Shown: piece by piece, positions 1-43,979 of the stretch
Numbering within the stretch: the first letter of the stretch is position 1
How the letters are laid out: each line of letters starts with the position of its first letter
Assembly: GCA_951406725.2 (NCBI GenBank)
Contig: OX597828.1
Location: 29,016,001-29,080,000 of the forward strand
Length of the DNA: 64,000 bases
Reading direction: 5' to 3'
From: Octopus vulgaris
Taxonomy: Eukaryota
Notes under the pieces: model-generated
Database searches by the model: none
Told to the model about the DNA's origin: nothing
What the model saw: only the letters and a program-made list of their open reading frames with translations
Position numbers and translations under genes: made by a program

Positions 1-221
1 CATATCTTAAACTCAAATTCTTACCACTTACAAAGTTATACGATATCTATTGACAGTTATATGAAATGGCCTATAATTGAGTATCAAGTTTTGTTGCCAA
101 GCATACAATTGACAAAGCATACAATTGACAAATACTATTGACAAAGTAATCCTGCAATTTAACGCCTTGACCAGCTGTGATTCTAAACATTTCTTTGTTG
201 TTATTGAATTTTTTCTCACGG

Positions 222-433
222 AAAGCCGTTGAGCTGGGAGAATCGTTCAGCCGTAGGACAAAATACGTTGACAGCATTTCTTCGGCTTTACGTTTCGAGT
301 TCAAATTATACCGAAGTCGACTTTTCCTTTCCTTTTTCCCAGAGTCGATAAAATGAATATCAGTTGAGCATTGGTGACGATATGATCGACTCGTCGCGTC
401 TCCCAAAATTTCAGGCTTTGTGCCAATAGTAGA
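222..433 (+). mobile_element. Degenerate tRNA-derived SINE, family A
   Basis: Diverged copy of the head/body/tail seen >20 times in the window (GAGCTGGCAGAA..GAGTTCAAATTCCGCCGAGGTCGACTTTGCCTTTCATCC..AAATTTCAGGCCTTGTGCC). Confidence 0.7.
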
Positions 434-873
434 AAAAAAAAAAAATTTCTTGTGAAATAATCAGTTCACGTTTTTATGTCCATCTATCTTTTTATTTCAA
501 TGATGAATTCACGACCGTTTTCCAGGGACTGAGACCTGGAGAGGAAAGAAGGATTTTATTCCAAGGCTGGAAATCTAACCCGAAGGCTTGTAATATGGAG
601 GTCTCCACTTTGGACCAAAGTAGCAGGTAGTAGTGTTAAAGAGAGCCTCGGAGCCTCGGATTAGGTGGTTATATCTCCCAAGAACAGGAACAGGTCTTCG
701 ACAGGTTTCCATACCAGTTCCGTTTACTAAATTTCTCTCGCAAGTCTTTGGTCAACTCGGAGGTATGGCGGTAAAGATTTCTGTAAATAAATCATTCCTG
801 GTGAATCTCTCAAAAGAGATGAATGCGCTAAATGAATATTCACGACCCTGACTATCTCCTTTTCCTTCATATA

Positions 874-1345
874 CAATAATCACATGCCATTTCGCGGTTC
901 ACCTATCACGTCCTCAGATTTTTGTGGCTAACACATGTAAATTTATATCGCGGCCTCCTCAGTATAACACGGGTTTCTGCGGCCGATAGATATTTATTTA
1001 TTTTTTAGATTTTAATCATTTCTGTGGTAAAATAAGCATTTTAATGACTAAAAATTAATAAATTAATAAATAAAAATACAGTACTGCACTATACAACACA
1101 TTAATTAAAATAAATTGAAAGAAAATACGTAGTGACTGCAGATGAGTAAACAGAGAATCGCACTTTATGGAAAATGAAATTAGGGAGGCGAGTGTGAGGT
1201 GTTGCTTTGCATTTATAATAAAATAAATATATGCAAATTATAAAAATAATGAGAAAATATATACAGTACTGTTTCTACTTCACGGATTTTCACCTATCGC
1301 GGGGCGTTTTGGAACGTAACACCTGTGATAGTCGAGGGATTACTG
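874..1345. mobile_element. Tigger/pogo-like MITE (Tc1/mariner superfamily, non-autonomous)
   Basis: TA-flanked; degenerate left TIR caataatcacatgc and right TIR cgagggattactg; shorter related copy at 51831-52038. Confidence 0.65.
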
Positions 1346-1510
1346 TATAAAACTTGTACAGCACTTCAAACAATCTACGCACACATAGACACACAAAGAC
1401 ACACAGACACACACGCGCGCGCGCGCGCGCATATAGACAAATTGACATATATATGAGGTATCCTGTTAAAGGTCACCACTTTTGTGTATAAATACGTACA
1501 CTATTATATG

Positions 1511-1582
<72 letters not shown>

Positions 1583-1785
1583 TGTATCATCATGTATGTG
1601 TGTGTATGTATTTGTTGACGTTGCTGTATGTTGACAACGGTTTCCGTCCGCCCAATTACACCGACAGGGTTTGGATGAAACCGATGGTGCAAAGACACCT
1701 GTTGCTAATTTCATCTTGCAGGCTCGACCCTGGGACCTAATGTTTGCAAAGCAAACTTCTTAACGACTCAATTACGTCTACTTCT

Positions 1786-1839
<54 letters not shown>

Positions 1840-1965
1840 ACACAGAGTCATGCACACATATGAACACGCAGATGGTATATATAAATGTATGTGTGTGTGT
1901 GTGTGTATATATACATATATGATATGTCTCTGTGTATTTATTAATGCGTGTATGTATATGTATAT

Positions 1966-1997
<32 letters not shown>

Positions 1998-2534
1998 TGT
2001 ATGTATAAGGAGACAGAAAGAGGATAATAGTTATATATAAAGATATAATATATACACACTCCATGCATCTCCCCATCCATCCATCCATCCATCCGCCCAT
2101 CCACCCATTCATCCATTCGTTCATTCGTTCATACATACATACATACATACATACATACATACATACATACATACATACATACATACATACATACATACAT
2201 ACATACATACATACATGCATACTGAGAAACAGAAGGACGGACACAGAGATCAGTGTGTGTGTGTGTATGTGTCCGTTCTTTTATTAAAGTCGTATAAATC
2301 ACAATATTTACATCATTAAATAATCTCTTTAACAAGTCAATAAATTGGTTTAGAGGTTCTCGGAATTGGATTATAAATAAATGAAGAAGGATACAAAATA
2401 ACTGAATGAGTAAAGAAATAAAATGCATAAAATAAAACAGTAATAAGGTAAAAAAAAATAATAATTCTCATTAATCGTATCGGGGAAGAAATAAGCAAAA
2501 GAATAAAACAGAACTACTACTACTAATAATAATA

Positions 2535-2922
2535 ATTTCAAATTTTGCCACAATGGAAGCAATTTCGGGTGAAGGGATTAATCGATTACATGGACCCCAG
2601 TGTTCGACTGGTACTTATTTTATCGATCCCGAAGGGATGAACGGCTAAGTCGACCTCGGCGGAATTTGAACTCAGGACGTAGCGACGGGCGAAATACCTA
2701 TTTCTTTACTACCCACAAGGGGTTAAACACAGAGAGGACAGACAAACGGATTAAGTCGATTATATTGAGCCCCAATGCGTAACTGGTACTTATTTAAACG
2801 ACCCCAAAAGGATGAAAAGCAAAGTCGACCTCGGCGGAATTTGAACTCAGAACGTAGCGGCAGACGAAATACGGCTAAGTATTTCGTCCGGCGTGCTAAC
2901 GTTTCTACCAGCTCGCTGCCTT
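2535..2922 (-). mobile_element. SINE family A dimer (head-body-tail1-body-tail2)
   Basis: Two body modules joined at gaaatag|gtatttcg (element strand). Confidence 0.85.
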
Positions 2923-2940
2923 AAATACTACTACTACTAC

Positions 2941-2971
<31 letters not shown>

Positions 2972-3217
2972 CTTTTCTACTTTAGACACAAGGCTTGGAA
3001 TTTGAGTGGAGGGGAGGGGGATGGTCAATCACATCGACCCCAGTACTCAACTGGTACTTATTTCATCGACCCCGTAATGATAAAAGGCAAAATCGACCTC
3101 GGCGGAATTTGATCTCAGAACGTAAAGACAGACGAAATGCTGCTATGCACTTTGCCCGGCGTGCTAACGACTCTGCCAGCTCTCGCCGCCTTAAACTAAT
3201 AACAATATCAATAATAA

Positions 3218-4679
3218 TGCTTTCTTTTATTGACCTCAAGGGCCCAAGACAGAGAGGGCAATATCGAAGGACGAGTTACAGCACAAAAAAAAAATATTAC
3301 AAAATCATGTGGGGTTAATATCAATCAAGGGGAGATACTACCACATTAAAGGATATAACACAGGATATATAATAGAAAGTAGAGAAATAAATAAATAAAA
3401 TCCCCTATAGAGGGGCAGTCCACTTAGGGTAATCTGGGGTAAACCCCGCACAAAATTCCCGGATCATCTCTAAGGCATGGGAAAGTGCCCTCTTACAGTT
3501 TCTTTCCTCCTGCTTAGAAAAACATATTCAGAGCCGATCCATTCAGTCTCACCACTCTTGCAACTGTTGACCACCTTTTGATAAACACGATAGAAGGCAG
3601 CACCTCCCCCTCTACCTTCACCTGCCTCTTCAAAGGCAGGTGAAAGGCTTGACCAGATAGGAATGTGCCTGTCTTCAAACCTTTCAGACGGGTCTACTAC
3701 GCAGCTTCTTTTGCCACAGCCACCAAGCAGAGCAAGACCTGCCTTCCTTCTCTGCTAAGGGAAGATGGTATGTCGATCTTTTACTATACACTCGTCAGAC
3801 AGCGGAATTCCTCTTACTCGCGACAACAGCTGTTCCACACGATCCCACAACTCTCTAATGCACGGACACTGAATTATTACATGCAGGATGGTTTCGTTCC
3901 CTGCAAGCACCTTGGGCAAGTTCGGCTGTTGGCGCTTCCATACCTGAAGAGCTTCTCTCGAACGGGCAATGCCCCTCTGTAGCACTGCTAAGCCAAAGAT
4001 TTTTGAAAATTATCCATGTTCTTCGACCCAAAGGTCCTCTGGAAGAGACTACTCAAACTGTTCTCGTCGATGCCTAGATTCAATGCTTGGCCATCATCAC
4101 TCATACCCTCAACTAGCCCCCTACAGAAATATTGGGTTGTTTTCCCGCTAACGGTTTTCGGCAGCTGTCACAATGCAGTGAGCGCCTGGCAACATTCTAG
4201 ATGCCAAACGCCCAACCTTGGTCTCCGTATGACTCGTGACTGCAGCTCTATCAATGAGATGAACTGCGGAAAGTCGAGTCACACGAAAGATGCCCACACC
4301 AGTTCACCCTTATTTTCGTCGTCGTCGTCGTCGTCGTAGTTCACATTATCTAAATCGCTTCAATATCTAAATCGCAGTGATTTAGATATTTCTGTAGGTG
4401 CGACAGCTTCAAAGTGTGACGCCGCATCATTAAGGATCTCATTCCAAGACCACCACGGTGTGGGTGTTAACAACAGATGGATCTTCTGACCAGTGGAACT
4501 TGACTCTTCCGTAAGAATTGGCAAAGCAAGCACTCCAATCTGGTCAGAGTTTTCTTAGGACAAAGTACAACGGCTAGGCTAAAGTGCACTACCGACCGAT
4601 ATATGCATTCGCTACTTCCGGCCGGCCTTTCAGAGATACCTTGTTTTCTGTCCATTTCCGGGTGAGCTTGGCCACCCTA

Positions 4680-4680
<1 letters not shown>
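3218..4680 (-). mobile_element. 5'-truncated, frameshifted L1/Tx1-clade LINE (ORF2 C-terminal part + 3' UTR)
   Basis: Minus-strand peptides KVSLKGRPEVANAYI, ..HPHRGGLGM.., QCYRGALPVREKL..RTCPRC..NETILHVIIQC (zf-RVT CCHC). AATAAA near the 3' end; 5' end abuts (TAA)n. Confidence 0.8.
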
Positions 4681-4733
<53 letters not shown>

Positions 4734-4736
<3 letters not shown>

Positions 4737-5030
4737 GTCGAGAGATATGACAGGTTAGCTTGGGAATTTAAGCAGTTGTAGTCGATGAAAAAGGTAGCAG
4801 TAGTACCAATAATTGTCGGAGCCCTGGGAACAGTGAGCAAAAATCTCGAGAAGTACGTGAAACAAATACGGGCTGCAATAAGGGTGGAGCACTTGCAGAA
4901 AACAGCACTGCTTAGAACCGGTCGAATACTCCGGAAGATGCTCGAAAAATAAGAGGTGTAACCTTAGTTTACTGGTAGTGAACAGCTGACACCGTAGTAC
5001 ATCTCCAGCGTTAGAAGCTGTGCAAAGGCA
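4734..5030 (+). mobile_element. R4/Dong-clade LINE 3' fragment (RLE C-terminus), pseudogenised
   Basis: KVERYDRLAWEFKQL*SMKKVAVVPIIVGALGTVSKNLEKY..LQKTALLRTGRILRKMLEK*; homologous to the 5580-6221 ORF; flanked by (TAA)n/(CAA)n. Confidence 0.8.
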
Positions 5031-5059
5031 ATAGCAACAACAACAACAACAACAACAAC

Positions 5060-5090
<31 letters not shown>

Positions 5091-5320
5091 TTAATGACAA
5101 TAATAATGGTTTAAAATTTCGGCGTAATGCCAACAATTTCGAAGGATTTGTTAACTCAATTACATCGACCCCCGTGCTCAGTTGGTAGTTATTTTATCGA
5201 CCCTCAAAAGAATAAAAGGCAAAGGCGACGTTATCAAAATTTGAACTCAGAGCTTAGACTAACGAAATACCGCTCAGCATTTGGTCCGGCGTAGTAACGA
5301 TTCCGCCAGTTCGCCGTCTT

Positions 5321-5352
<32 letters not shown>

Positions 5353-5514
5353 GCATAATGGTTCCAAATTTTGGTGGAGGGGACTAGTTGATTACATCGA
5401 CCCCAGTGTCTCACTGGTACTTAATTTATCGACCCCCGAAAGGACGATAGGCACAATCGACCTCGAAAGAATTTGAAATCAGAACTTATAAATAGCATTT
5501 TGTCTCACGAAGTA

Positions 5515-5555
<41 letters not shown>

Positions 5556-5558
<3 letters not shown>

Positions 5559-6372
5559 GCAGAGACTGAAGGTTTCATAATGGCAGCACAAGATCAAAGC
5601 TTGTTTACCAGAAATTACCAGGCTAACGTTCTCCGAAACGGTACTGACCCTAAATGCAGATTCTGCGACACATTTGACGAAACGATAGACCATCTCGTTT
5701 CGGGATGTCCTGTGCTGACACCAAACGAATACAAAAATCGCCACGATAGGGTAGGACAGTATATACATTGGAAGATATGTAAACACTACAAATCCGACAT
5801 TCCTGCTAACTGGTACGAACACCATCCTCAGCCAGTTGTTGAAGGTAAAGATGTCACAATCCTCTGGGATTTTCCAGTCAACACTGACAGAACGATCAAG
5901 GCTAATCGACCAGACATAATTGTTAAGGACAGGGAAGAAAATACCTGCAGACTAATAGAAGTAAGCGTCCCCACTGATAAAAATGTATCTGTCAAGGAAT
6001 TTGACAAACTTAGTAAATATAAGGACCTGGAAATCGAAATACAGAGGATGTGGAATCTTAAAACAAAAACTGTTCCTGTTATTGTAGGTGCCCTAGGTAT
6101 GATAAAAAAGGGATGTCAGAAACACCTAGACAATATCCCTGGAAAACCATGTCTCAAGGAAATCCAAAAGATTGTGCTAACAAGTACTGCCCACATCCTT
6201 AGAAAAACCCTATCAATGTAAATGTCTGTGTTTGCATTACATGGAGATATATCTCTACTTCCCCTCCCCAAGCTTTCAGCTGTATTTCAACAACTCTTAA
6301 CCTTCACTTGCCCTAGGGCGCTGGGTGTGCCCCGGCAGGTGATTGCATCAAACATGCAGATTAAAAGTAAAT
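5556..6372 (+). mobile_element. R4/Dong-clade LINE 3' fragment: CCHC zinc knuckle + restriction-like endonuclease
   Basis: Open frame 5556-6221: ETEGFIMAAQDQSL..CRFCDTFDETIDHLVSGC..RHD..WDF..NRPDIIV..IEVSVP..KLSKYKDL..VPVIVGALG. 5'-truncated, (TAA)n on both sides. Confidence 0.92.
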
Positions 6373-6379
6373 GACAATG

Positions 6380-6434
<55 letters not shown>

Positions 6435-7308
6435 TGATGATGATAATAGCAATGATTTTAAATTTTGCCACAAGGGCAGCAATTTTAGGGGATGGTGATG
6501 AGTGTTCAACTGGTACTTAATTTATCGATCCCAATAATAGTAGAAATAATAATTGCAATGATGATGATGATGATGATGATGATGACGACGACGACGATGA
6601 GGATTATGATGGTGGTGGTGGTGGTGGTGGTGGTGGTGGTGGTGGTGGTGGTGGTGGTGGTGGTGGTGGTGACGTTGGTGTTGGTGTTGATGATGATGAT
6701 GATGATGATTGTGATAATGTCAATAGCATTCCAGCCATTGAATAATTTACAAATTGAAAATAAGTCACTAGTTACTAATTAATCTGATATTTATGTCAAT
6801 AAAAATATATAAATAAATCCAATACTCTAAACTGAAAGTCGTTATAGCAACTGAAAAAAAAAATTAACGGTTTTATAAGTGCGAGTATATATAATATACT
6901 GTATATGCACACATATCTATATACATAGAGACAAAACCTTTATTTAGCAATTCAATCAATACTGAACGATATTATCCATACAAAACCATATAGAAAGTAG
7001 TTAAATATATTATATATATATACATACTATATTTGTTCCACGTCCTTACGTTGTTGTGTTTTCTCTTTGTGTTTTCATGTTTGGATTAACTTTATATATA
7101 TATATATTTATACATATGCATATTGGGCTTTTACACAGTCTCTGTCCACTTGGTTCACTCAAGAGACATTAGCCGTCCCGGGGCTATAGTGGAATGGAAG
7201 ACACTTGTCCGGGGCACTGACCAGTGGCATTGAATCCGAAACCATGAGCTTCTTGACCACATTAGAGTATGCTTACTCTTTATACTACATTTGTTTCTAT
7301 CTTTTCAG

Positions 7309-7431
7309 GTTGCCGGAATGTTAGTGACGTATTTCATATTGATGGTGCAGTTCCGAGATTCGGCTGAAACTAAGTTGTCTTTGTGCATGTGTTCGAATAG
7401 CGCAAATCGTACGTGGAACAAAACTGGTTGA
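7309..7431 (+). CDS. Terminal coding exon of a gustatory-receptor-like (GRL / 7TM chemoreceptor ion channel) gene
   Basis: Acceptor ttgtttctatcttttcag|, phase 0. Translates VAGMLVTYFILMVQFRDSAETKLSLCMCSNSANRTWNKTG*, matching the GR/GRL TM7 motif hhG..hTYhhhhhQF. Upstream exons not found in the window. Confidence 0.8.
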   Translation, partial: VAGMLVTYFILMVQFRDSAETKLSLCMCSNSANRTWNKTG

Positions 7432-7828
7432 GGGTCAACGTGCCTACTAACCGTCCCAAAAAAACCTCTGGTTCTTATTACTGGTTACCAAGACGTTCAA
7501 AGACATCCGTCCGTGTGTCTGACACTCTCTCTGTCTCTCTGTCTCTCTCTCTCTCTCTACAATATAAATATATATATATATATATATATATTTACACGCA
7601 TGAACACACCCTCACACGTGGAACAAAACTGGTTGAGGGTCACCGTGCCTACTAACCGTCCAAAAAAAACCTCTGGTTCTTATTACTGTTTACCAAGACG
7701 TTCAAAGACATCCGTCCGTGTGTCTGACACTCTCTCTGTCTCTCTCTCTGTCTCTCTGTCTCTCTCTCTCTCTCTCTCTACAATATAAATATATATATAT
7801 ATATTTACACGCGTGAACACACTCTCAC
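7411..7828 (+). repeat. Tandem duplication (~205-bp unit x2) covering the GRL stop codon and proximal 3' UTR
   Basis: Units 7411-7615 and 7616-~7828 both start ACGTGGAACAAAACTGGTTGAGGGTCA and are nearly identical. Confidence 0.92.
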
Positions 7829-8373
7829 ACATACACACACACGCACGCGCACAAGGTTTCGATTTCACACCACCCCCCTTCCCTGCATAGCACATCGTCT
7901 TCTAATGCTGCCCCAGGTAGACTAATGGAAACTATGCGGAAGCCAACCGTGTGTGTGTGTGTGTGAGTGAATGTGTGTGTACGTCCTTCCCCCACCACTT
8001 GATAACAAGTGTTTGTTTACGTCTCCGCAACTTAGCGGTTCGGCAATGGAGTCCGATGGTATAAGTAGACTTGAAAAGAAAATTAGTATTGAGATCCATT
8101 TGTCGACTAAAAACACTTTAAGGCAGTGCCCCAGCGTGGCCGCGTTTCACTGACTGAAACAAGTAAAAGATAAAAGACTTTTAAAAGAGGAATCTCTCTT
8201 TTCGACTACTACCTTCACAAAGACCAGACTAGCTTATCCTGTCTCTTCATAAGCTCGTCTCCCTAAACGTTCAGAATAATTTTTCCATCGTCTTGGCTTA
8301 ACAACCCTCATCGTTTGCTTTTACTGTTTTGTTCTCATTGTTCTATCTTTTACTATTTTTACTATTTTATTAG

Positions 8374-10284: not shown

Positions 10285-10623
10285 TCAGTAGTTTTATTTT
10301 TTATAGCGTGCTTTCACTTCACTACCGAGCGCAGCTCTGTGTGCCTTGGGTATGTGCTGTGATTTGTTGTGATGCTCTGATGGTTATTGTATGGAAAGTG
10401 TTCTGCGTAGGATGTGTGCAGTGCCTAGTAGTGCAATTTTCTGTATGTTATATGTGTTTGTAAGTCCTGGTGTTTTTGTTATGTATTTGTCTGAATATTT
10501 TTTTATCATGCCTAATGCACCTACTATGATAGGAATTGTTTCTGTTTTTAGATTCCACATTCTGGTTACCTCCATTTCCAGGTCTTTGTATTTTGAAAGT
10601 TTCTCCATTTCTTTTAGAGACAT
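10285..10623 (-). mobile_element. R4/Dong-clade LINE 3' fragment
   Basis: SLKEMEKLSKYKDLEMEVTRMWNLKTETIPIIVGALGMIKK..IQKIALLGTAHILRRTLSIQ*; (TTA)n on both sides. Confidence 0.88.
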
Positions 10624-10625
10624 AC

Positions 10626-10686
<61 letters not shown>

Positions 10687-10885
10687 TATCTATTTATTTA
10701 TTTACTTTGCTTTCCGTCTCCAATTTAGAGAGAAATATCAATGAATTTAGAATTTATTGCGTACGGCTTTCAATATAGCGTCCATTAGCTTAATTAACCA
10801 AATACATGTCATTTGCACCCCTGGATTATTTCTTTGAGCTCATTACATATATATACATACATACATACATACATACATACATACA

Positions 10886-20289: not shown

Positions 20290-20678
20290 GACAGAGACAG
20301 AGCGAGAGAGCCGGGAAGAAAAATGCCTCCTCCCTCCACTTCCACCTATCAGTATTTTAATTAGTAATTTATTTGCTAATCACTATCAGAAGAAGCATGA
20401 CAGGCAACATTGACGGAGGGATTCAAACTGAGAGGGAAGAAAGCCGGAGGAGCAAAGCATATTAGCCATTCTATCCGATGCCTTGACAACTACTGCTTCT
20501 GCTGCTACTGCTGCTGCTGCTACTGCTGCTGCTACTGCTGCTGCTGCTGCTGCTTGTTGGACTCTCGGTCTGAGTGACATTCTATTTCTAGTGGACTACG
20601 TTTAAATCATTGCTTCTTGTGTTGCACTCAACCATTACATCTGAGGTTACCTTTAGCCATTCTGCTTCAAGTAAAATA

Positions 20679-21157
20679 CCTATTTCTTTACTACCCACAA
20701 GGGGCCAAACACAGAGGGGACAAACAAGGACAGACAAACAGATTAAGTCGATTACATCGACCACAGTGCGTAACTGGTACTTAATTTATCGACCCCGAAA
20801 GGATGAAAGGCAAAGTCGACCTCGGCGGAATTTGAACTCAGAACGTAACGGCAGACGAAATACCGGTAAGCATTTCGCCCGGCGTACTAACGTTTCTGCC
20901 AGCTTGCCGCCTTCAAGTAAAATACCTATTTCTTTATTACCCACAAGGGGCTAAACACAGGGGACAAACTAGGACAGACATAGGTATTAAGTCGATTACA
21001 TCGACTCCAGTGCGTAACTGGTACTTAATTTATCGACCCCGAAAGGATGAAAGGCAAAGTCGACCTCAGCGGAATTTGAACTCACAACGTAACGACAGAC
21101 GAAATACCGGTAAGCATTTCGCCCGGCGTGCTAACGTTTCTGCCAGCTCGCTGCCCT
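20679..21157 (-). mobile_element. Two full-length SINE A copies in tandem
   Basis: Target-site sequence agtaaaatacc occurs three times (20670, 20916, 21158). Confidence 0.88.
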
Positions 21158-21263
21158 AGTAAAATACCATCGTCATCGTCACCATCATCATCATCACATC
21201 ATCATCAATGTAGGGATTCATAGCAGCAGCAGCACCACCACCAGTAGCAGTAGTAACAGTAGT

Positions 21264-29227: not shown

Positions 29228-29990
29228 AGGCGGCGAGCTGGCAGAAACGTTAGCACGCCGGGCGAAATGCTAGGCGGTATTTCGTCTGCCGTTACGTTCT
29301 GAGTTCAAATTCTGCCGAGGTCGACTTTGCCTTTCATCCTTTCGGGGTCGATTAAATAAGTACCAGTTACGCACTGGGGTCGATATAATTGATTTAATCC
29401 GTTTGTCTGTCCTTGTTTGTTCTCTCTGTGTTTAGCCCCCTGTGGGTACTAAAGAAATTGGTATTTCGTCTGCCGTTACGTTCTGAGTTCAAATTCCGCC
29501 GAGGTCGACTTTGCCTTTCATCCTTTCGGGGTCGATAAATTAAGTACCAGTTACGCACTGGGGTCGATGTAATCGACTTAATACCTATGTCTTTCCTTGT
29601 TTGTCCCCTCTGTGTTTAGCCCCTCGTGGGTAATAAAGAAATAGGTATTTCGTCTGCCGTTACGTTCTGAGTTCAAATTCCGCCGAGGTCGACTTTGCCT
29701 TTCATCCTTTCGGGGTCGATAAATTAAGTACCAGTTACGCACTGGGGTCGACATAATCGACTTAATCCGTTTGTCTGTCCTTGTTTGTCCTCTCTATGTT
29801 TAGCCCCTTGTGGGTAGTAAAGAAATAAATTTTACGTTCTGAGTTCAAATTCCGCTGTGGCCGACTTTGCTTTTCATCTTTTCGGGATCAATAAATTAAG
29901 TACCATTTGCGTACTGGGCTCGATCTAATCGACTGGCTCCCTCCCTTTAAAAACATTTCGGGCCTTGTGCCTAGAGTTGGAAAGAATATC
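29228..29990 (+). mobile_element. SINE family A tetramer (one head, four body modules)
   Basis: ~186-bp module repeated from ~29278, 29461, 29645 and partially from 29832. Confidence 0.9.
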
Positions 29991-35859: not shown

Positions 35860-36279
35860 CTTTCTTTCTTTATTACCTTCATGGGCCTAAGCCTAGAGGG
35901 GAGAAACAAGGACAGACAAACGGATTAAGTCGATTACATCGACCCCAGTGCGTAACTGATACTTAATTAATCGACCCCGAAAGGATGAAAGGCAAAGTCG
36001 ACCTCGGCGGAATTTGAACTCAGAACGTAATGGCAGACGAAATACCTATTTCTTTAGTACCCACAAGGGGCTAAACACAGAGAGGACAAACAATGACAGA
36101 CAAACGGATTAAGTTGATTATATTGATTCCAGTGCGTAACTGGCCCTTAATTTATCGACCTCAAAAGGATGAAAGGCAAAGTCGACCTCGGCGGAATTTG
36201 AACTCAGAACGTAACGGCAGACGAAATACGGCTACGCATTTCGCCCGGCGTGCTAACGAATCTGCCAGCTCGCTGCCCT
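35860..36279 (-). mobile_element. SINE family A dimer with TSD attcatgcaatatt
   Basis: TSD at ~35846 and ~36281 brackets the whole dimer; internal junction gaaatag|gtatttcg. Confidence 0.88.
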
Positions 36280-43073: not shown

Positions 43074-43979
43074 TGTTTCTTTATTAGCCACACAGGGCTG
43101 CACACAGATAGAACAAATTACAAGGTAGAGCTTTTCTTTTGAAGGTTTAAAAAAAAAAAAAAGGAAGGGGGAGTTTCGATCAAAAGGGATCGTAAAAGGA
43201 GAGAAAGAGGACAAAAATAAGGGGGTTAAAAAAAGGGGGAGAGGAAAAAAAAAAAAAAATTTGATCAATAGGGATCGTTATCACAGAAATGTCAATATGA
43301 AGTGTAAAGGGGAGGACAGGTGAGGTTTACCCGTGGAAAGAAAAGCCTACGGAAAAGACCACGGTAACCTCGGTCAATGGGGTCACATGTTATATTTCTT
43401 TTTTTTTTTTTTGCAATAAGCAACTCTCTGTTTTCAATTTCTGGGTTCATAGGATCATGCTCAAGGTGGCTTCGTCATTCATACGTGCCATTCTTGCTAC
43501 ATTCACCCATCTTTTTTTAAAACATTCGCTAGACAAAACTTGCCTCTCTACTCTCACTTTCCTTTTCAAGTGGTACTTGAAGAAGTTGATGAGAGATTGA
43601 CCAGAGAGGAAAGTGTTTGTCTCCAATCCTTTCAGACGCGTCCACCAGATACATTCTTTCGCCATAGCCACAAGGATGATGAAAATAGCTCTTCCTTCCC
43701 GTTTGAAGGAGGGAGGCGTGACAATATTAACGATAGACTCAGCTGATAAACCGACTCGTCCCACACGTGACAGCAGTTGTTCGACACAAGCCCACAGGTC
43801 GGAAATTGTTGGACACTGCACGAGTGCGTGCAGAACGGTTTCGTCGCTCTGACCGCATCTCGGGCAGGTCGGCCCCGTGTTTCTCGAGCCGTGTCTGTAG
43901 AGCTTATCCCGACCGGGTAGCGCTTCTCGGTAGCACTGCCAGGCCAGGGATTGCTACTGAGAAGCGCTACCCGTTCGGG

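Follow-up and report, generated by a model that had tools for sequence, protein, structure and literature searches.

The probable pore-helix exon of an insect-GR-like gene in Octopus vulgaris and its head-to-head paralogue

Insect-type receptor channels and the octopus locus

Cephalopod chemosensation is usually framed by chemotactile receptors, ionotropic receptors (IRs) and GPCRs, and to our knowledge almost nothing is known of the ligands and roles of insect-GR-like seven-transmembrane channels (GRLs) outside insects. In the insect gustatory receptors (GRs), as described in the available text of PMC12635824, the pore is lined by S7b of four subunits, its closed hydrophobic gate is formed by the Phe of a QF pair, and a ligand in the S1-S6 pocket swaps the Gln into the pore. 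The hallmarks of Gr genes are given in the accessible parts of PMC9998090 and PMC6150509 as the TYhhhhhQF motif together with three phase-0 introns at the 3′ end, and Class-A 7TMIC takes in the animal Grls (bioRxiv 10.1101/2023.08.30.555482, accessible part). GRLs have been reported across Protostomia, including Mollusca (PMC7746228 and PMC11526382, excerpts), and among the roles described for those outside insects are the sensing of light or oxidants and a part in egg laying and in early patterning (PMC7746228, excerpt). A full-text literature search, made mostly among the main texts of openly accessible papers, found no study of a cephalopod GRL, and the accessible text of PMC5850775 mentions neither octopus nor cephalopods.

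The nAChR-derived chemotactile receptors of cephalopods and the IRs are also ionotropic sensory receptors (PMC12635824 and PMC11526382, accessible parts), but their folds, pentameric nAChR-like and iGluR-like, are unrelated to that of GRLs. Whereas the structure and function of the chemotactile receptors have been tested, the octopus GRL pair described here is known from sequence and from the predicted fold of an orthologue.

The window, that is, the whole stretch of DNA analysed, is 64,000 nucleotides of the O. vulgaris genome (G000:C15:29016001-29080000; genome 2.8 Gb). Our main reading, to which we assign a probability of about 0.88, is that an intact O. vulgaris GRL (7TMIC Class-A) gene, GRL-A, has its spliced last exon at positions 7309-7431, which encode the predicted pore helix of a likely tetrameric, ligand-gated cation channel. 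Such a gene is an expected family member in molluscs, and its last exon is already labelled gustatory receptor in NCBI; new here are a corrected model of GRL-A, a paralogue (GRL-B) and the head-to-head arrangement of the two. Correct models of two intact octopus GRLs make the question of their ligand and role directly testable.

The last exon and the structure of GRL-A

The exon at 7309-7431 (C15:29023309-29023431, plus strand, 123 nt) is the fourth and last coding exon of GRL-A and encodes most of pore helix S7b, a 25-aa predicted extracellular tail and TGA; it translates as VAGMLVTYFILMVQF followed by the tail RDSAETKLSLCMCSNSANRTWNKTG. It lies behind a pyrimidine-rich, T/C-rich tract with a CAG acceptor (7269-7308, plus strand, ending TTTTCAG) and is read in phase 0, as a sequence-only reading of the window had described; the Cys pair (CxC) and the two sequons (NRT, NKT) which that reading gave for the tail are likewise present in the O. 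vulgaris sequence. The TYhhhhhQF signature is TYFILMVQF (7327-7353, plus strand), in which the gate is predicted to be formed by Q and F, a role taken from the accessible text of PMC12635824. A strict TY-(5 hydrophobic)-QF pattern was sought in six-frame translation over 224 kb, made up of the window and the 160 kb upstream of it; two matches were found, both in GRL last exons (exon 4 here, and C15:28966570 on the minus strand), compared to two matches in total in 20 shuffles of the same 224 kb (0.1 per shuffle). The motif at the 7309 exon is beyond chance.

The exon had been described as hidden, which it is not: all 40 of its residues stand unchanged at the C-terminus of CAI9733792.1, an annotated O. 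vulgaris protein. A search with the exon among longer proteins gave two of four candidates, both of which include it, namely CAI9733792.1 (100%; 249 aa, named 'gustatory receptor for sugar taste 61a-like') and UniRef A0A0L8FSD6 (97%; O. bimaculoides 'Gustatory receptor', 413 aa). The former is GRL-A itself and the latter its orthologue, and both differ from the four-exon model. The NCBI model has, in place of exon 1, 122 aa read from a tandem-repeat ORF whose position is 4.8 kb upstream of the true start, together with a stretch of intron; for its repeat-derived beginning, this 249-aa model was rejected. The short-unit tandem repeat that supplies its first exon (L005, C15:28998735-28999100, between GRL-A and GRL-B) gives similar peptides in three frames. 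The O. bimaculoides model skips the 69-nt exon 2, a segment that is present in the homologues of Lottia, Mactra, Mya, Solemya, Lineus and Owenia. Judged by these sequence comparisons, both public models of GRL-A are faulty. The 'sugar taste' name is likely an automatic best-hit label, and we also rejected 'sugar receptor' as a function. The match to Gr64a is one at the family level (~13% identity in structural alignment).

Mapping the two public proteins on the 224 kb, followed by reading of the splice sites, placed exon 1 of GRL-A at C15:29003884-29004927 (1,044 nt; N-terminus and S1-S6), exon 2 at C15:29012952-29013020 (69 nt) and exon 3 at C15:29015756-29015845 (90 nt; S7a and hairpin; outside the window), all on the plus strand. 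Earlier seven-transmembrane exons had been predicted to lie upstream of the window, and exons 1-3 were found there, the last intron measuring 7,463 bp; exon 3, with its S7a and hairpin, is also the TM7a-like exon with a phase-0 end that had been foreseen. The three introns (8,024, 2,735 and 7,463 bp) are all GT-AG and phase 0 and lie near the 3′ end, falling after aa 348, 371 and 401, with the motif Thr 59, 36 and 6 residues further on. Intron 3 starts 155 bp before the window and fills its positions 1-7308 (plus strand). The frame is open over 441 aa with a single stop, at its end, an in-frame stop lies two codons ahead of the ATG, and the hydropathy plot has seven segments with peaks of at least 1.5. 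Junctions 1-2 and 2-3 are predicted from the splice sites and the open frame. Scored with a profile from 35 more distant rows (the five closest omitted), the four-exon product reached 253.6 bits; leaving out exon 2 lowered this to 216.1 and leaving out exon 4 to 209.4, and the NCBI model scored 94.1. The O. bimaculoides orthologue is 91.7% identical over exon 1 and 97% over exon 4; conservation of the peptide in other cephalopods, also anticipated, extends to O. bimaculoides at 97% over 35 aa. No AATAAA or ATTAAA was found within 3 kb after the GRL-A stop.

A tandem duplication of two 205-bp units (7411-7830, plus strand), 89.7% identical over 214 columns, overlaps the end of the gene; unit 1 begins in the last seven codons of exon 4, stop included, and extends into the 3′ flank. 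The O. bimaculoides model stops five residues earlier, exactly at the start of the 205-bp unit. Its tail ends NPT, and the two O. vulgaris sequons are absent there. Among 44 motif-bearing proteins (near-duplicates included), a sequon follows the motif in 25 and CxC in 13. In mollusc and annelid GRL tails (P0007-P0010, P0073 and others), CxC and then an N-glycosylation sequon recur after QF. The sequons and CxC would fit an extracellular C-terminus, even though the O. bimaculoides tail is without a sequon, and the CxC might be disulfide-bonded where the predicted pore opens to the outside.

Splicing into 7309, which the sequence-only reading required, was looked at in four runs (X1-X4) over window positions 7120-7520, the RNA status of X1-X3 being presumed. 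In X2, from a related organism, a 208-nt contig of depth 2.2 covers 7309-7437 with three differences and carries a 79-nt loose end exactly before 7309; in the 30 letters of this end that were shown, 27 match the end of exon 3, compared to 9 for the genomic end of the intron. Exon 3 is joined exactly to 7309 in this one low-depth contig of presumed RNA. The three differences in its exon-3 letters are synonymous (by eye), as is the listed change at 7347. The same-species X1 contig spans 7310-7466 with zero differences and no loose end, coverage in X3 runs from 7440 onward only, and X4, a presumed DNA control, gave no coverage of the exon in the 76% of the run examined.

A low contig depth, a 205-bp duplication that begins inside the last codons and an NCBI model broken by an N-terminus from a tandem-repeat ORF are what could be expected if the exon were a pseudogene relic or a chance motif outside any working gene. 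This alternative is largely refuted, and we consider it very improbable: the four exons are open and in phase, 92-97% of residues are conserved with O. bimaculoides, the X2 exon-3 differences and the listed 7347 change leave the protein as it is, the paralogue has identical intron positions, and the motif turns up 0.1 times per shuffle.

Family membership and the paralogue GRL-B

The assignment of this gene to the insect-GR-like seven-transmembrane family, first proposed from the exon, is supported by gene structure, by a profile match to Gr64a and by the fold of the orthologue. The TYhhhhhQF motif is present in S7b of both GRL-A and GRL-B (TYLVLLIQF in the latter), the three 3′ phase-0 introns that are a 7TMIC Class-A hallmark occur in both by their position relative to the motif, and, where some 400-450 aa and seven transmembrane segments are expected, the products have 441 aa (A) and 439 aa (B), with a helical bundle in the orthologue model. 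The suggested search against 7tm_7 and Trehalose_recp gave a divided answer, since the O. vulgaris protein P0001 passes Trehalose_recp (PF06151; 22.4 bits, cut-off 21) but just misses 7tm_7 (PF08395; 26.1 bits, cut-off 26.6). The O. bimaculoides protein, P0002, scores 20.8 bits on 7tm_7, and the relatives P0007 (Lottia), P0006 and P0005 pass it. In Pfam, the 40-aa exon 4 peptide alone matched no family, exon 1 of GRL-A none, and exon 1 of GRL-B gave a weak TMEM72 match only. A single-sequence phmmer search of PDB with P0002 returned nothing; a 40-row profile retrieved 16 sequences from PDB (E ≤ 1), every one of them an insect GR, OR or Orco, the best being Drosophila Gr64a (E 6e-26, positions 30-401). 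In the Atlas, the nearest clusters are 7tm_7/Trehalose_recp at 0.95.

The protein folded was P0002, i.e., the O. bimaculoides model without exon 2 and not the O. vulgaris product. AlphaFold returned a helical bundle (pLDDT 86, pTM 0.86) with two short strands forming a beta-hairpin and a final helix, 373-407, that bears the motif; S7a is fused to S6 in this model because exon 2 is missing. The structural comparison that had been proposed came out in favour of the family, with 23 Foldseek matches at E ≤ 0.001, of which the 21 listed are all insect OR, Orco or GR (TM 0.54-0.68). A GPCR (rhodopsin-like 7TM) fold was rejected, as GPCR chains reach a TM of at most 0.15 by query, with E of at least 0.29. 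With the insect GRs and ORs (Drosophila Gr64a and Gr43a, Bombyx Gr9, Orco, MhOR5), the octopus proteins share the fold, profile homology, TYhhhhhQF and the three 3′ phase-0 introns, but identity is 12-16%, and no expansion was found in octopus.

Closer relatives were found among other animals, a phmmer search of 1.84 billion representatives returning 62 proteins at E ≤ 0.001, 10 of which were looked up and seven named (Lottia, Mactra, Mya, Solemya, two of Owenia, and Lineus). The GRLs compared were those of Lottia gigantea (V4AUT3), Mactra antiquata (KAL4225658), Mya arenaria (XP_052798265), Solemya velum (KAL5005431), Owenia fusiformis (CAH1786853) and Lineus longissimus (XP_064628567). They share with octopus a length of 429-450 aa (Lottia, Mactra and Lineus), the C-terminal block, TY...QF and, mostly, a tail with CxC and a sequon, but the four compared for identity are 23-27% identical to GRL-A, and octopus has two paralogues that group together.

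The second of these was found by a search of the genome with exon 4, which gave another match 57 kb away on the minus strand. GRL-B (C15:28991039-28966502, minus strand, loci L006-L008) is intact and encodes 439 aa. Its predicted exons, all on the minus strand, are exon 1 at C15:28991039-28989966 (1,074 nt), exon 2 at C15:28984374-28984306 (69 nt; the best of 320 AG-GT candidates, with a score of 30 against 3 for the next), exon 3 at C15:28979795-28979706 (90 nt) and exon 4, with the motif, at C15:28966588-28966502 (87 nt). The introns fall after aa 358, 381 and 411, and their distances to the motif Thr (59, 36 and 6 residues) are exactly those of GRL-A. The two proteins are 23.8% identical over 411 columns, and GRL-B has only five hydropathy peaks of at least 1.5. 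A homologue search with its exon 1 returned no octopus protein and two proteins at 38-39%, one of which is P0005.

A quick tree was built from A, B and 32 of the fetched proteins, 34 rows in all (short fragments omitted, no outgroup root and no named insect rows). In it the branch of A, which also holds O. bimaculoides and P0006, joins that of B, P0004 and P0005 with an SH-aLRT of 94, within a 13-row clade that includes Lottia, Mactra and Solemya (SH-aLRT 97). Since the octopus paralogues group together at 94, the A/B duplication is likely younger than the divergence from gastropods and bivalves.

Beyond this pair, a local profile found no third GRL over the 224 kb. Genome searches with exon 1 of A, exon 1 of B, the Lottia GRL, exon 3 and exon 4 recovered A and B, plus weak matches elsewhere (C9 at E 3.2 and 0.56, C5 at E 0.23). 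A genome-wide PF08395 search gave 36 weak matches, none at the GRL locus; the sole one over the cut-off (C2, 27.6 bits) contains a stop. The corresponding PF06151 search gave no matches, and its controls were silent too. As these domain searches miss even the GRL locus, the copy number is at least two.

Gating, possible roles and neighbouring repeats

Because the exon encodes S7b with its motif intact, insect-type gating is likely in GRL-A, by analogy; channel activity of GRLs outside insects is presumed. Extrapolating from the insect GR structures, S7a and the S4-S6 ends in the cytosol would hold four subunits together; the four S7b helices would wall the pore, and the Phe of QF would shut its extracellular gate. 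A small ligand in the S1-S6 pocket would then tilt S7b and let the Gln take the place of the Phe, upon which cations would flow and depolarise the cell, while the tail with its Cys and sequons would lie outside.

As for the role, no more than two copies were found, and both belong to old lineages; for this reason we favour, at roughly even odds, a sensor that is narrowly tuned to a single cue or a few, whether internal or external, and that works in a small population of cells, over a broad repertoire of taste receptors. GRL-A might instead sense external chemicals in neurons of the sucker, the olfactory organ or the lip, making up a further ionotropic system beside the nAChR-derived receptors and IRs. 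The canonical gate motif is intact in both paralogues, the sugar receptor Gr64a is the closest solved relative by profile, and insect GRs are ligand-gated taste channels (PMC12635824, accessible text); however, two copies are no expansion, and ~13% structural identity makes the Gr64a match a family-level one; we regard this role as less likely than not. A low copy number together with deep conservation (molluscs, an annelid and a nemertean) would also suit a conserved housekeeping or developmental function, that is, a developmental, light- or oxidant-sensing or otherwise non-chemosensory GRL comparable to Nematostella Grl1, C. elegans LITE-1 as well as GUR-3, or the egg-laying motoneuron homologue. 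Roles of this kind are documented for non-insect GRLs (PMC7746228 and PMC5850775, excerpts), but the signature motif of the octopus protein is fully canonical, and we consider such a role rather unlikely.

GRL-A and GRL-B stand head-to-head, with 12,844 bp between their start codons. For P0005 (B-type) and for P0006 (A-type, 36%), the ENA record gives a contig 81,305 bases long, a hint which, if one shared contig is assumed, would fit a linked pair conserved in another lineage. It is conceivable, though we regard it as distinctly doubtful, that GRL-A and GRL-B are co-regulated from the 12.8-kb head-to-head region, form an obligate heteromer, have been linked since before the split from the P0005/P0006 lineage and make up a third ionotropic chemosensory or interoceptive system of cephalopods. 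If true, this two-gene heteromer system would be small enough for complete deorphanisation and would offer a clean test of non-insect GRL sensing.

The part of intron 3 that lies in the window contains microsatellites and retroelement remnants. The 3′ remnant of a non-LTR retrotransposon at 5556-6218 (plus strand; zf-RVT 19.4 bits, under the cut-off) starts at or near a (TAA)n run, as do further short ones at ~4735-4950 and 10384-10689, and we take these remnants to resemble TAA-targeting elements of the R4/Dong type. A LINE remnant with a zf-RVT domain over the cut-off (32 bits) lies at 43450-43953 on the minus strand. Tandem arrays of 184-244-bp units occupy 20665-21168, 29276-29934 and 35865-36229; the same repeat is also dispersed in the window and is probably a SINE family.
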